Below, piece by piece: positions 42,001 through 48,000 of a stretch of DNA of 64,000 nucleotides. The position numbers were made by a program. Within the stretch, counting starts at the first letter, position 1. Every line of letters starts with the position of its first letter. Source of the DNA: an uncultured Nitrososphaerota archaeon (GTDB taxonomy: Archaea; Thermoproteota; Nitrososphaeria; Nitrososphaerales; Nitrosopumilaceae); contig CAWGPD010000003.1 of the NCBI GenBank assembly GCA_963824385.1, positions 160,001-224,000 on the forward strand, written 5' to 3'.

Positions 42001-45000
42001 CGGTTTACTGTCCGCTAACTCAAAAATCGATTTTTTTTATCTAAAAATTATTGTCCATTTCATTTTAAGATCTCTGATAGTTTTAGATCGAGTTGAATTT
42101 TTAAAATAATTCTAAAAAATAGATCTTAAAAAATTTTAATCAAATATGGATTCTAAGATTTTAAAAATAATAAAAAATAGAGGCTTAAAGATCTAAGCCA
42201 AAAGAGTCTGCAAGATTCTGGAATCTTTCATATGACTGTAGATATTGCTTACCTTTTGATGTTATGACAAATGTGTTCTTTCCGTCGAATTCTATCTTGT
42301 TGATTAGACCTGCACCAGTTAGATTGTCTACGAATTTGGATAGTCTTGAATGTGATAAATTGGCCTTTGTTAGAAGTGATGTTACATTAATTCCGTTCAT
42401 ACCGCTTTCTTCTGTTACAGTAAGCAAATCTCTTACTATCTGCATGCTTGTTCTATATGCTACCATGTTAGAAACTATAAGATTTGGTGATATAAGGGTA
42501 TTACTATTTATCCTCTTTGTAATCCTTATAGGGACGTATTTTATCTCGATGAAAGGAAATTTATCCCTTTTTTGAGGATATGGTACAATTGGATTTTTTA
42601 TGTATAAAAGATTGTTCCAAGTGTTGTATTGAAAGAGAGTATTATCCAACAAAGAAATTTGGCAAGGTGGGTGTTCTTATCTTACCCCCTGAGAAAAAAC
42701 AGATCGAGTTACTGGCAGAAAAAAATGGCATCAAGATTTCAATTGTACCAAGAATAGGCGTATCCGAAAAGCCTGATGGGCCTGATACTATACTTGCATA
42801 TCAGATGATGGGTAAGGATCCAAATGGCAATACGTGCCCCTTTCTGGATGTGGAATCTAGTAAAAGATCGCCACATGGTGGATATGCATGTAAAATCTAT
42901 GATTCTAGACCACTTGCATGCAGGGCATACCCTGTGATAGAATCTACTCCACTTACTCTAGATTCAAAGTGTAAATTTTGTGAAATCTGTGATGCCCCTA
43001 CTGGAAATGTAGACTTGGAACTGGAATCACTAATTCAAATAAAAGGCCAGATGAAAACTGATGCGCCTTACATCTGGCGTTATGCAACAGGTGTAGGAGA
43101 ATTACAAGATAAAGATCTGATTGAAAACGGTTGGTTCCTAGTCTGATTTGCCTACTCTTTCATGAGTACCAGGATAGTGTTCTCCAATTTTTTTAGAATA
43201 ACACTTGCTGCACAAATTACCCTTTATGTTCCATGATTGCATTGGAACGTAAACATGATCAAAAGGACCATTACACATTGCACAATGTCCAACTTCTTTC
43301 ATGTTCGATCTTTCTTGTTCAAGTTCGTTATAAAAATCATGATCGTAAATAGTATGTTAAATACTAGCGTATTCTAGAATAAAATAGCGGTAGGATGGCT
43401 GGCCAATGTGGACCTCCTGCAAGAGAACCTATCGGTCAACCGTTCTGCCGCATTGATTTAAAATTCTAAAAAAGATCTTGGACTACTTTTTGGATACTTG
43501 CAATCTCTTCTTCTTCTTGTTTTATCTTCTTCTCTATTACACGAACCATGGAATCCTGCCAAACATGGTGAGAGAAAAAGTTGTGATATGTATTTGCAGC
43601 AGTCATCTCATCATCTACTACAGTATCTTCTAGAAACTTTGTCACAACAGTGTCTGTCAGTTTTAGGATGCGCTGATTTAATTTAACACTCTTGAATATT
43701 GGCTCTAGCTTGGATATGTCTTCTTTAAAGTCGTCCTTTGAAAGTATAATCTTTTCATGGAGGATCTTAAAGTATACTGCAACAAAAAATAGTGTCGCAT
43801 ACCTCTTTGTCTTATGACCTCCTTTCTTTCCATAATTTAATGACTTTTTTGCATATTCCTTGATAAAATATGGATAAAGAAGCAGTCTAAAATCATCCTT
43901 TAATTTCTCGTTAAAGACCTCGTCATATTTACTGCCTCTTGGTAAAAATTGTGCAGGAGAACTGTATGCCTCAGTTGGTCGTTGTTCTGTTCCTGCAACA
44001 AAGGCCTGTATTGCATCCTTTGCTACAATGACTTTTTTGTGATTGTCTGGCAAATATTTATTGTAAATGACATCTCCAACAAACTCACTTTGATGTGATT
44101 TTGTTTTGGTATCAAATGAGCCTCCTTGGATTTCATAAAAATAATGAATGTTCTCCATTTGCGATTTTATTGATTTGTGAAAGTCCATTAACGATACTAG
44201 ATCTTTTCCTCTTACTGCATTCTGAGAGTTTCTGTATTTTGTTATGTTGTTTTGATCCAGTTCGTCTGCAGACTTTTATGATTGTGACAGTTATACTTCC
44301 ATCTAAATTATGAGTACGTCTTGCATGGTCTAATACAGAATTTGATGTCTGTGCCCCGTTTACTATTTGAGGTGAATGTAAAACTATGGAATTATCTTCC
44401 GATTCCTCAAAATCGCTTACTACTATTGTAATTCCATTGTTGTAGTAGAAAAATTTGTGGGGCACTTCCTGCAAAGTTTCTCGCAATCCCTTGTTTACTG
44501 TAGTCTTGAACTGCATCCATTGTCTAATGTTTGATTCAAAAACATAGTCCTTGTTCTTTGTAACAAAATTAGTAAGTTCTCTTAATTTTAAAATGCCTAA
44601 AAGTGTATTTTGATATCTCAATTTAGTTTCAAGTTTGATGGATGCCTTTTTGCCAGCAGCTGGTTTTTTTATTCTATCCCAAAGTTTTCTGACTATGACA
44701 TCTACGTCATAAATTTCAACAGACTCAAAATTTTCATCCTCTACCTTCTGATCTGTCACATAGATACACTCTATCTTTAGATTTTTTTCCTGGATCTTTG
44801 TGACAAGGTGTGCAAGCTCTGGACGCATCTTTGCAATGTCTTTACCTTGTAATCTCTTGACATCTTCTCTGAATTTTACTATGGCTTCAATGGAATGAGA
44901 TGTTCCGTACTTTGACTGGAATAGATAGATCTTGTCTTCTGAAAAATCTACTGGCAGATACGCATCTATTCCTAAATCGTTTGCACCGTCAATTATTGCA

Positions 45001-48000
45001 TCAGTTGCATCATCTTCAGTTGCCTCAAAGACTCTGGTGAGTACCCACTGCAAAAAATTATGACCCTTCTCAACCTCATTTTGTGCACTTTCAGCATATT
45101 CTTTTATGCTGTCTTTTACATTTTGTACAAAACCATCTAGTGGTTGACCACCTGTATTCTGATATGAAATAGGTTTTGCGCCTGGAATGTATTCTAGTAG
45201 ATTATTACTTTCTGCCAAATTCACTCTGTCTACAAACCGCTCTATTTAGAAAAGCGGGTTATTATGATATAATTAAAAAGGTGAGGAAGGGATTTGAACC
45301 CCTATAGATTCGCTTTGCAGGCGAACGCATAGCCACTCTGCCACCTCACCGCGATCAAAATGGCTTTATTTGAACAATTAAATCTTTTAGATTAGAATTT
45401 TGAAAATTGCTTTGCTGCAAGTCTAATGTCTTCTGACTTTATCGTCTTTCTACCTGCATGTACTGACATCTCTACTGCATTTTTTGCAATCGAACCACCA
45501 ATCTCTTCTAGTATTCTTCTAAGTTCATTTGCTGATTCATCACTTACTCTTTCTGCACCTGCTTTTTTCAATATTCTATACATTACAGAAAGACCAAATT
45601 CTGTTGTCATACAATAAATCCAAAAACCCATGATAAAAGACTTTGAGTGGAAAAAAACTATGCAAGGATCGATTTATACACACTATTTTGTGCTCAAATA
45701 AGTGATTATGGCTTGGCTGACTGATGCTCATATTCATCTATCAGACAACGAGTACTTGGCTGACTTGGACTATGTACTAGTAGTCATGGATAGATTGAAG
45801 ATCAAGGCATGTTGTGTTTCTATGGATAACACGACTTCAAAATCTACACTTGAACTAAGTAAACGCAGTCCTCTGGTTTTACCATTTATTGGAATTCATC
45901 CTGAAAAAGCAGATGATGATCTAAATGTAATGGTAGAATTGATTAGAAACAATTCAAATAAAATATCTGGAATAGGAGAGATTGGTCTTGACAAAACATA
46001 TGTTTCTGACGAAGTGGGATTTTCAAGACAAGTATTGGTATTCCAAGAGATGCTCTCACTTGCAGAAAAATTAGGAAAACCAGTATCGGTACATTCTAGG
46101 AGAACTCTAGATGAGATATTTTCTATACTCCCGTCTTATTCCATCAAAGGTGTTTTACTTCACTGGTTTTCTGGCAGCAAAAAGCAATTACAAAAAGCAA
46201 TGGAACTTGGATGCTTTGTATCATATGGACCGGCAATGGTTTATTCTCAAGACAAGCAAGTTCTTCTTGAACTTACAGACTTGGATAAAATACTCTTGGA
46301 GACTGATGGACCTGTGAGGTTCTCAAGATGTTTTGGTCTTAAAACCGCACAAATAACATTTCTACCTAGCGTGCTTTTTTGTGCAGCTGGTATATTGAAC
46401 AAGTCATATGATGAAATGTTACTGATTGCAGAAAAAAATGCCAATTCATACCTTGGTGTATAGGTATAAAAAACCCCTTTAGGCAATCAAATCAGTGAAC
46501 AGAATCAGAAAAATTTCCATGGAATTGATGACCACTTATAAAGGAAAATTTGACAATGATTTTGCACACAACAAACAGGTTCTAAACGAAGTTGCAATTG
46601 TAAGATCTAAAGGTCTCAAGAATGAAATCGCAGGTTACATTTCTACATATATCAAACGAGAACTTGAGGAGAAACAAGAAAAAGAAGCTGATGCAGTTGC
46701 TCACAACGAACCAGTTGATGAGACTGAAGAGATTGAAGAGCAGATACTCAACTAGGTTTTTTACAAAAATCCAATATACCACATTCCTTCTTTTGGTAAT
46801 ATGATAACTGTCAGGTTACTGGGAGGTGCAAAAAAGTCATTTTCAACTGATAAGATTGAGATTGAAAGTGACCTTATGACAATATCTAATCTGTTAGACC
46901 ATCTTGAAAAATCCACTCCTAACAATCTTCCACACCTTGATCCCAACAATATTCTTGTTGCAGTAAATGGCGTAGATTCATCTGCATTGCAAGGAAAAGA
47001 GACTTTACTAAAACGTGGAGACATCATAAGTATAATTCCATTAGTTCATGGTGGAAGATCAAAGAGGATACAATTTGCTCTAATGAAAAATACTATAGAG
47101 TTAGTAAGACTCAAAAAAACTACAGAAGATCCAATTACATTTATCGAGTCACTCAGAGAGAAATATCCAAATCTTGTCATCCAAGGAATTGGTGCATCAT
47201 ATGTCCTCAATCCAGAACATGTACAAAAGACAGTTGCCATTTCTTTGTCTGCTCAAAAGGCAGGCACGTTGCTTTCTAATAAAATTGAGACTGATATTCT
47301 AATGAGATTTGCATGTACTAGGCAAATTAGTGACGCAATCTCTAAAGTAGGTGTAAAAAAGAAAGCAGATTCTATATTGATAATAATTGGAAAAAAACCA
47401 TTAATTGAAAAACTCTACAATTACATTGAGGATCTTTTACAAGACAATGTGTTTTCTAAAGATAATTCCACATTGATAAAAAAAGAATTTGGAATAACAA
47501 AAAAGCAACTTGACTGCGTGTTTTCTAAAACGCCCTTGGAGGATCTGCTTGCAGAAAAGTCTGCAACATTATTCCATTGAGTCTCGCTTGAGCTTTAGCG
47601 TACTGACAACATCCTCTTCTCTTAGTATTGAAACGCCTGTTATGCCGCCCATTATCTGAATCATAACATTCCAGTCATAGGATTCTAAAGACACCTTGTT
47701 TGGAATTATGCCTGCAACTGAATCTATAATGCCCTTTGAGGAAATATCCGAGCCTCTTTTTTCAATTGTAATCCTGTATGCGTCTGTATCTTTCATTATT
47801 TTTATTTGGTTTCTCACACTTTCTACTATATTTTCAAGACTAGACGAAGTGGATTGTCTAATGGGAATGAATCTATGACAATATCTCATTCTCCATGGCT
47901 CATCAAGAGTTATCTTTTTGATTTCAGCTATGACAACAAACGGATCGATTTTAGTGTCAACCCAAACTATTCCTGAGAAACTTGACTTGCCAATTCTTGG

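Follow-up and report, generated by a model that had tools for sequence, protein, structure and literature searches.

The AIPR-family gene in the 64,000-nucleotide stretch analysed here (the window), which comes from an uncultured archaeon of the Nitrosopumilaceae, is real, and its apparent split into two genes is an assembly error. Its locus also holds a second, separable element, an unannotated hairpin RNA that very probably pairs with the start of a zinc-ribbon mRNA. We are evenly divided on whether the protein is a stand-alone, nucleotide-gated surveillance nuclease of the AbiU1 type that became fixed in the ancestor of the family. The whole analysis was computational; coordinates are collected in Table 1.

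The survey's finding had described a gene split in two. Two frames are indeed seen, each with a match to PF10592 (E 1e-28 and 1e-22), but the split is not genuine: near-identical contigs from runs X1, X3 and X7, which represent three studies, lack the extra base, and insertions of the same type also break RtcB and ValRS within the window. One other genome, G340, has the same extra base in its AIPR gene, together with a second such insertion. A true pseudogene or a programmed frameshift is ruled out by the contigs of the three studies and the similar insertions in the window, and intact relatives are 580–608 aa long. Given AGCT-linked insertions of this kind, split genes in comparable assemblies may be errors too.

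Table 1. Features of the AIPR locus, in window coordinates.
Feature	Position	Strand	Basis or remark
Double-CxxC gene, 54 aa	43138..43302	-	The protein neighbour that varies least around AIPR
Conserved TATA-like box, roughly 30 nt upstream of the hairpin RNA	43354..43363	+	Putative function
Unannotated 65-nt hairpin RNA gene	43387..43451	+	Converges on the AIPR stop; an antisense RNA predicted to act in trans
Hairpin RNA seed, 23 nt (5′ arm and C-rich loop)	43399..43421	+	Complementary to the zinc-ribbon RBS and start codon
AIPR gene	43466..45224	-	Pfam PF10592, G169 ortholog model, fold matches, invariant motifs; 585 aa if intact
Single extra base within an AGCT site, splitting AIPR	44272..44272		Assembly error
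Putative AIPR promoter: imperfect palindrome, then TATA-like box	45243..45273	-	Window and 10 loci compared
tRNA-Cys(GCA), between histone and AIPR	45279..45350	-	ARAGORN; Rfam RF00005, 61 bits
Archaeal histone gene, 72 aa	45392..45610	-	PF00808, E 4e-12

The protein comprises a PD-(D/E)xK nuclease domain (residues ~28–186), a ParB/Srx-like domain (~200–340) and a helical domain (~341–585). The intact ortholog from genome G169 scores 188.8 bits against PF10592 (cut-off 25), and its structure is predicted with a pLDDT of 87.9. In this model the nuclease domain resembles FokI (Z 9.0, rmsd 4.3, 144 aligned), AF1548 (Z 8.3) and AspBHI (Z 8.1). The middle domain is closest to PadC (Z 6.4, rmsd 3.1, 95 aligned) and also resembles sulfiredoxin, KorB and BrxU, the ParB/Srx matches being middling (Z 4.6–6.4). 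For the helical C-terminal domain no fold match emerged (pLDDT 64.8 when modelled alone, best Z 4.3); a sequence search of the protein against solved structures gave no matches, and Foldseek none at E ≤ 0.001. Residues D79, D83, D87, Q103 and K105 of the nuclease domain are invariant in 19 of 19 orthologs, as are N232, R234, N263, G264, N289, G290, Q292 and N332, and the ParB-superfamily core motifs N-x-R, NNG and NG-x-QT form invariant columns across 102 sequences. By its modelled fold and its D...D-x-Q-x-K motif the protein is a predicted PD-(D/E)xK endonuclease; by its PF10592 score and the core motifs it is a member of the AbiU1/AIPR family.

With the N-terminal half as query and a threshold of E ≤ 0.001, matches were found in 343 of 401 family genomes, including 210 of the 246 that are at least 90% complete. 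Four of the matches are weak (E 1e-7 to 1e-12, in G052, G061, G071 and G080), and the one inspected, in G052, is a different AIPR beside dndB. An order-wide sample of 186 genomes from 16 other families held no ortholog-grade copy, and distant ones in seven (best E 3e-20). This agrees with the near-restriction to Nitrosopumilaceae that had been proposed, and the stated 74% identity to the protein of genome G027 is confirmed. Its description as a core gene needs qualifying: matches fall in 20 of the 27 genera, and the gene was not found in genera g7, g8, g10, g12, g16, g18 and g19, nor in parts of g2, g13 and g14. Clean losses are seen at the locus, as well as a decayed remnant in G016, and genomes without the gene include closed ones of 1.5–2.7 Mb; three g5 genomes of 0.8–0.9 Mb retain it. 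Loci without the gene have a GC content of at least 0.45 in 15 of 20 cases, against 1 of 15 loci with it. The absences are mostly in methylase-rich genomes, which resemble the host-associated lineages that a passage of PMC7848895 says face more phage pressure.

Domestication and separation from any methylase had also been claimed, and both are supported, as is vertical inheritance. The gene is single copy, and its tree (FastTree) is compatible with those of its neighbours except in g24, where the protein is fast-changing (42–59% identity) and has been either strongly diverged or replaced in place. Mean identity is 0.80, whereas the histone reaches 0.77 and TatD 0.60, and among 15 genes of the block only ribosomal S11 is more conserved. 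For one genome pair dN/dS is 0.025, at a dS of 1.1 that is near saturation, and in a 0.8-Mb genome the protein stays at 72–77% identity where TatD has fallen to 48%. Among the ORFs scanned around the gene there is no methylase, and its neighbours are housekeeping genes rather than members of a restriction-modification operon; the Dam-like and beta-class methylases of the window's genome (G000) lie elsewhere, the latter with close orthologs only in g1, g6, g9 and g26. One record, L168, is exceptional in having a methylase fragment and transposases upstream. A plasmid and viral contigs also carry AIPR genes that stand alone, so a missing methylase is by itself no sign of housekeeping. The best full-length viral match is 31%, and no close copy on a virus was found among the viral matches searched.

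The gene had further been described as fixed beside the histone gene, with a chromatin role suggested by the adjacency. In 49 named loci with at least 5 kb of upstream sequence, the histone gene lies within 1.2 kb in 39, at 5.4–5.7 kb in two, and is absent from eight. 'Fixed' therefore overstates the case, because 10 of the 49 loci deviate and the downstream double-CxxC neighbour is constant in all 65 loci that reach it; that gene is also kept where AIPR has been lost. The 39 close loci and the shared strand are what would favour joint action with the histone in chromatin, an interpretation we consider highly improbable. Synteny is block-wide, and all 16 ortholog loci have the surrounding genes in collinear order; the tRNA gene intervenes, as does an opposite-strand gene between it and AIPR in all eight loci chosen for a long gap. 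The putative promoter of AIPR is separate and is kept even behind an inserted upstream gene. Of 40 near-complete genomes that lack an AIPR ortholog, moreover, 38 have the histone. We found neither histone-specific linkage nor co-loss: the two genes are neighbours through block synteny, and neither a specific link nor the chromatin role drawn from it is supported.

If the protein is a surveillance nuclease, its gene would have entered the family ancestor, probably at tRNA-Cys, and been inherited vertically from then on. The ParB/Srx-like domain would bind a nucleotide and keep the nuclease off until viral infection or DNA stress altered a host signal, whereupon the DNA cutting released would halt the infection or the cell. 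The slow evolution would make sense if what is sensed were a conserved host signal rather than a protein of the virus. The fold, the catalytic motifs, the AbiU profile, the dispensability of the gene and its divergence in g24 count in favour of such a function. Against it count an identity above that of the histone and the low dN/dS, which are unusual in a defence gene, together with retention in the small g5 genomes, absence from methylase-rich genomes, the lack of a close viral copy and the middling scores of the ParB-like domain. High identity, low dN/dS and a rank behind only S11 would fit a housekeeping enzyme of DNA maintenance (repair, replication restart or segregation), in which a ParB-like nucleotide clamp, once loaded onto the chromosome, cuts or nicks some defined structure, and which is lost where lifestyle has altered. 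Its single copy, its retention in reduced genomes and the GC-rich character of the loci without AIPR point the same way. We nevertheless regard such a role as possible but rather unlikely: many lineages have lost the gene, closed genomes of 1.5–2.7 Mb among them, it is diverged or replaced in g24, other ammonia-oxidising families do without it, and the relatives inspected have defence or mobile surroundings or stand by themselves.

It is unlikely, in our judgement, that the protein serves in trans as the restriction partner of the orphan GATC or AGCT methylases, or that it depends on modification and clashes with foreign methylases. The nuclease fold is near those of AspBHI and MspJI, and a passage of PMC6329791 reports both orphan methylases as active in Nitrosopumilaceae. 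Genomes without AIPR do have more beta-class methylase matches (median 6, 38 genomes), and within g13 the figures are 4.5 without the gene and 2 with it (p 0.03), but this excess disappears against 13 large g13 genomes that have AIPR (p 0.73), and the gene is found alongside up to 11 methylase matches; the count trend that would suggest incompatibility is not robust. All 64 near-complete genomes have Dam-like matches, whether AIPR is there or not, which leaves no specific co-occurrence for a Dam partner. Depletion of GATC and AGCT does not follow AIPR (10 versus 7 genomes, p 0.42 and 1.0); at the block loci GATC is less depleted without AIPR (0.73 versus 0.94, p 0.006), a difference that is gone in a GC-balanced set. 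No methyl-reading domain was recognised among the fold comparisons.

The second element lies 14 nt past the AIPR stop codon. On the plus strand it folds with a z of -5.6, and it has no match in Rfam up to E 10. Two-sided changes are seen at 10 of its 14 pairs, a result equalled in 0 of 500 shuffles; the alignment was fitted to the model, and 92.6% of positions pair compared with 21–54% in slid controls. The hairpin occurs in 83 of 95 genomes of the family and in none of 55 others, and nearly all copies compared have the TATA-like box upstream. Its predicted target is an 87-aa zinc-ribbon gene on another contig, outside the window (G000:C4:128205-128468, minus strand). In 41 genomes the duplex of hairpin and target is at -42.8 kcal/mol within a genome and -36.8 kcal/mol for cross pairs, and with one genome per genus (19 genera) none of 10,000 permutations matched the observed co-variation. 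Among 30 genomes that have the RNA, 28 retain the target site; among 18 that lack it, only 2 do. These compensatory changes and the co-evolving complementarity to a distant mRNA leader mark the hairpin as a candidate small regulatory RNA. The exposed loop would bind the 5′ end of the zinc-ribbon mRNA and the stem unzip, after which a 23-bp duplex would cover the Shine-Dalgarno site and start codon; repression of the zinc-ribbon gene is probable, expression of the RNA and the direction of its effect being judged from sequence. In the single RNA run considered (X19, short contigs), the 5′ part of AIPR and the histone are covered and the hairpin is not, which speaks neither for nor against the predictions. 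The target gene is still there in 79 of 80 genomes, those without the RNA included, though in the latter its Shine-Dalgarno site is mostly gone. The target protein has no Pfam family over cut-off, and its top Atlas clusters are all unnamed Nitrososphaerota ones; the seed pattern was sought in viral contigs and not found.

Without any RNA–RNA pairing, a single protein could bind the shared 23-mer as DNA at both loci, or the hairpin could be just a two-way terminator of AIPR. The hairpin's closeness to the stop codon, the folding of its minus strand (z -2.65) and its usual loss together with AIPR (full copies in 7 of 40 genomes without the gene versus 37 of 40 with it) would fit, yet either explanation is very improbable given that the hairpin has a TATA-like box of its own, that the mismatches show the G-U excess expected for the predicted orientation (37 G-U versus 13 A-C), and that in four genomes (G128, G103, G045 and G020) the RNA has a change that mirrors the switch of the target start codon from TTG to ATG. 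The hairpin also outlives AIPR in the seven genomes, and AIPR outlives the hairpin in g5; since either occurs alone, the RNA is ruled out as an obligate antitoxin of AIPR. The target promoter has at least two GATC sites in 28 of the 30 genomes carrying the RNA, against 1 of the 18 lacking it; both DNA features are rare in G000, where among 1593 crude gene calls GGAGG precedes 21 and two GATC sites precede 12. The RNA, its target site and the promoter GATC sites are lost together, and we offer as a speculation that they form, with the strong Shine-Dalgarno site, a replication-coupled pulse generator, with AIPR as a slow-evolving checkpoint enzyme of the lineage. Dam methylation state would time zinc-ribbon transcription to the moment when the replication fork passes, and translation would be shut off again by the antisense RNA; an IS10-like circuit would have been put to new use as a timer of the cell cycle.

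Nitrosopumilaceae carry out much of the ammonia oxidation in ocean and soil, and their gene control is little known. For a nuclease of a defence family that is as conserved as a histone there are two readings, a rare immune sensor that became fixed or a genuine domestication, and under either it is a tractable protein for learning what AIPR domains do. The hairpin would be a regulatory RNA of archaea with a target predicted through family-wide co-evolution, and it hints at what the orphan Dam methylase of the family may do; if the timer is real, it would operate in the dominant marine and acid-soil nitrifiers.

Among known systems, AbiU1/AIPR (PF10592; PADLOC AbiU) is the closest, its profile match spanning the nuclease and ParB-like domains. 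Passages of PMC3632139 and PMC2292703 describe this family as having a domain of the ParB superfamily, joined to other nucleases, and as tied to restriction-modification systems, whereas the window's gene is single-copy, vertical and slow-evolving, without such neighbours and with no AbiU2-like partner seen. Its N-terminal domain models as PD-(D/E)xK, compared with the HEPN named for AIPR in PMC3506569. MzaE, given earlier as the nearest NCBIfam entry, does match at low score, but AbiU is the better hit (PADLOC E 1e-42 versus 7e-13); the protein shares the AIPR core with MzaE, at 60 bits against an MzaE cut-off of 1050, and no mzaA–D-type genes occur among the neighbours scanned. With the type IV enzymes GmrSD and BrxU, and with DndB, the protein shares a ParB/Srx-fold domain and a nuclease (BrxU Z 4.8), although a profile comparison with DndB of G052 gave no match. 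In GmrSD and BrxU an HNH nuclease sits behind the ParB/Srx domain, and BrxU is nucleotide-gated; here a PD-(D/E)xK nuclease stands in front, and modification dependence is unsupported. For the RNA, the parallel is IS10, whose RNA-OUT is a hairpin of about 70 nt with a loop that nucleates on the 5′ end of the mRNA and hides the RBS, under a Dam-controlled promoter system, and type I toxin-antitoxin systems, which use antisense RNAs. By analogy, the hairpin of the window would resemble RNA-OUT/RNA-IN and the type I RNAs in its size, its start at the loop, its cover of the RBS and the promoter GATC sites. Unlike them it is archaeal, chromosomal and far from its target, which is a conserved core zinc-ribbon gene, neither a transposase nor a known toxin.

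The AIPR-family gene (PF10592; 585 aa when intact) is split in the studied assembly, G000, by a sequence error rather than a real break. The window covers G000:C3:160001-224000. Set against 28 further genomes from its genus, G000 contains a surplus base at 44272 that it has in common only with genome G340, which carries a second AGCT insertion besides the one in AIPR. Three DNA runs, each from a different study, gave contigs that lack the base; two of these contig sets match the window at all but three other letters, and the window's source may be among them. Four of the 28 single-base indels between the window and 40 kb of genome G169 fall within AGCT sites (about 1.2% of all positions), and these include breaks in AIPR, RtcB and valyl-tRNA synthetase (ValRS). 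PMC6329791 gives AGCT as 96% methylated in a Nitrosarchaeum genome, and we therefore infer that the AGCT insertions are likely base-calling errors linked to methylation.

Features at the AIPR locus and related loci (window coordinates unless a contig is named)
Feature	Position	Strand	Remark
Histone gene	45392-45610	minus	
tRNA-Cys	45279-45350	minus	between histone and AIPR
AIPR	43466-45224	minus	
Hairpin RNA, GC-rich	43387-43451	plus	fold z -5.6
54-aa double-CxxC gene	43138-43302	minus	downstream neighbour of AIPR
AGCT-site single-base insertions	32216, 33779, 37656, 44272		split ValRS, RtcB, AIPR
Probably shortened gene	33039-33764		by AGCT-site insertion
Winged-helix pair (PF14947)	42185-42652, 49024-49314		paralogous, either side of block
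tRNA-modification cluster	46801-48677		ThiS-Cgi121 fusion, THUMP, Sua5 consecutive
Predicted RNA target, 87-aa zinc-ribbon gene	G000:C4:128205-128468		locus L083, C4:128205-128490
L041, solo Dam-like methylase	G000:C3:101675-102422		split in assembly
L039, solo beta-class methylase	G000:C4:402049-402750		
L236, second AIPR	G136:C11:135469-137145		

The survey's finding that AIPR has been domesticated in Nitrosopumilaceae is borne out. Mean identity across 13 genomes outside genus g24 is 0.80 for AIPR, 0.77 for the histone, 0.61 for PGM and 0.60 for TatD, and the AIPR dN/dS between G169 and G010 is 0.025; of the 14 other genes compared in the block, 13 have a higher value, dS here being close to saturation. 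At its supported clades the FastTree topology matches the tree of the neighbouring genes, and this agreement, together with the conservation, supports real domestication. The exception is g24, whose AIPR (L056, L057, P0122, P0123) occupies the same locus, is only 42–59% identical and branches outside the other orthologs, which reflects either fast change or replacement in place. As a family gene AIPR is nearly restricted to Nitrosopumilaceae: its N-terminal half matches in 343 of the 401 genomes of the family (210 of the 246 that are near-complete) and in 20 of 27 genera, a tally that takes in eight unpublished genomes (G338, G077, G228, G206, G258, G093, G092 and G260, with G077 also supplying one row of the alignments); 186 genomes from 16 other families yielded no ortholog, and seven of these genomes hold a distant AIPR. 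It has, however, been lost in places. Of the 62 genomes whose match was weak or absent, we inspected 20 at the histone locus: both flanks are kept without AIPR in six, one (G024) lies at a contig edge and the remainder are rearranged. Genome G016 retains the AIPR promoter and a 3′ remnant full of stops, so loss there is secondary. GC content is at least 0.45 in 15 of these 20 loci, against one of 15 ortholog loci. PMC7848895 describes sponge symbionts as marked by high GC and many restriction-modification genes.

The survey also placed AIPR as fixed beside the histone gene and took this to suggest a housekeeping role in chromatin or DNA. The histone is indeed near in 39 of 49 loci with enough upstream DNA, but the downstream double-CxxC gene is the steadier neighbour, being present in all 65 loci that reach that far (68 named loci, two of which come from a single record). 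Core gene order is common to 16 of 16 ortholog loci from 13 genera, with a wider block from purB to pyrF in most. In all eight long-gap loci that were checked, an opposite-strand gene, plastocyanin-like or other, occupies the gap, and the promoter motif of AIPR itself is kept despite this insertion; of 40 near-complete genomes that lack an AIPR ortholog, 38 still have the histone. The adjacency is therefore inherited gene order, and the chromatin reading falls. We take the gap gene of L164, L211, L213, L046, L050, L051 and L056 to be plastocyanin-like from its motif; L013 has a different, 120-aa gene between tRNA-Cys and AIPR. Close homologs carry the name Nitrosotalea sp., at about 88% identity.

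The hairpin beside AIPR has no Rfam match. Elsewhere too it is preceded by a TATA-like box, and its C-rich loop hardly varies between copies. A search model based on 21 copies detects it in 83 of 95 genomes of the family and in none of 55 others. Two-sided changes occur at 10 of 14 pairs in 68 distinct copies, exceeding all 500 shuffles, though the alignment is biased towards the model and related copies are not independent. Its 23-nt seed matches G000 almost perfectly at one further place, where it lies antisense to the Shine-Dalgarno site and the TTG start codon of the zinc-ribbon gene, the predicted trans target, with a duplex of -50.9 kcal/mol against -33.9 for the next best of about 2950 purine-rich sites scanned; pairing is computed to stay favourable (-14.9 kcal/mol) after both RNAs are unfolded. 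This gene is specific to the family and has a strong Shine-Dalgarno site of a rare kind; 79 of 80 genomes carry it, with identity near 80%, and 121 genomes outside the family gave only two partial matches.

Across 41 genomes with both, the mean is -42.8 for a genome's own RNA-target pair and -36.8 for cross pairs, an excess that persists without the g1 clade (31 genomes) and at one genome per genus (19), where none of 10,000 permutations did as well. Changes in the target's spacer, codon 2 and start codon are mirrored in the RNA, and mismatches are G-U in 37 cases versus A-C in 13, though among the 41 the G044 pair was scored on a target not its own. Of 30 genomes with the RNA, 28 retain the site and 28 have two GATC in the target promoter; of 18 without it, two retain the site and one has the two GATC; G328, whose RNA is broken, is in neither group. 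Against pairing, G080 and G259 keep the core site with no RNA detected, G041 keeps a strong predicted duplex, and losses cluster by lineage. No hairpin transcript was seen in contigs of one RNA run (X19), which bears on neither reading. The target promoter, about 50 nt upstream of the start (L083-L113, L144-L163), has a conserved inverted repeat over a TATA-like box and two GATC (Dam) sites, an element lost in most genomes without the RNA. The two winged-helix genes are, at a guess, candidates for binding the palindrome that precedes AIPR and the one that precedes the target. An out-of-frame ATG lies 16 nt upstream of the target start in L083, at the predicted transcript start; its 13-codon frame overlaps that start and could be either accidental or a leaderless upstream ORF.

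The RNA is found in 37 of 40 genomes with AIPR (missing in three of genus g5) and whole in seven of 40 without. Co-deletion can be ascribed to adjacency and, since each persists alone, we do not treat the two as one system. Literature searches, in which few subscription papers were covered, showed nothing joining AIPR with Nitrosopumilus, nothing since 2019 joining it with ParB plus a nuclease, and nothing on small RNAs in these archaea; supplementary tables of AOA transcriptomes or pan-genomes may contain either the gene or the RNA. None of the literature matches listed names N. maritimus. The survey's observation stands with corrections, minus its chromatin reading, and as a novelty the unannotated RNA with its co-evolving target is the better supported.

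Tests for a link of AIPR to the orphan methylases failed. L041 lies directly 3′ of a gene that we take, from its translation, to be amoC-like, and a Dam-like match occurs in 64 of 64 near-complete family genomes. L039 adjoins a presumably Alba-like gene; its close orthologs are confined to g1, g6, g9 and g26, with a distant 257–265-aa enzyme in most other genera. Genome G407 of another family (f8; L458-L459) is strongly depleted in AGCT (0.29 of expected) and GGCC (0.45), unlike Nitrosopumilaceae. L236, at 44% identity, is sister to the orthologs and sits in a variable region with no recognised methylase; L061, in G052, is an unrelated AIPR divergent from a dndB gene, with a ParB gene close by.

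We see an even chance that AIPR would act as a nucleotide-gated surveillance nuclease; the main rival, a housekeeping DNA-maintenance enzyme, seems less likely. Both active-site motif sets are invariant in 19 of 19 orthologs. Among 11 distant AIPR loci annotated, five adjoin a methylase, dnd genes or restriction-modification genes, and the other six are solitary; on plasmids, the closest copy (33% over 90%) is alone, with an integrase nearby. In the model of the intact G169 ortholog (pLDDT 87.9), residues 28-186 resemble PD-(D/E)xK nucleases (FokI, Z 9.0; AspBHI, 8.1; MspJI, 7.7) and residues from about 200 to 340 resemble ParB/Srx folds (PadC, Z 6.4; sulfiredoxin, 5.5; BrxU, 4.8). The helical tail, in a separate and weaker model, gave no fold match at Z of at least 5. 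The top defence profile is AbiU.
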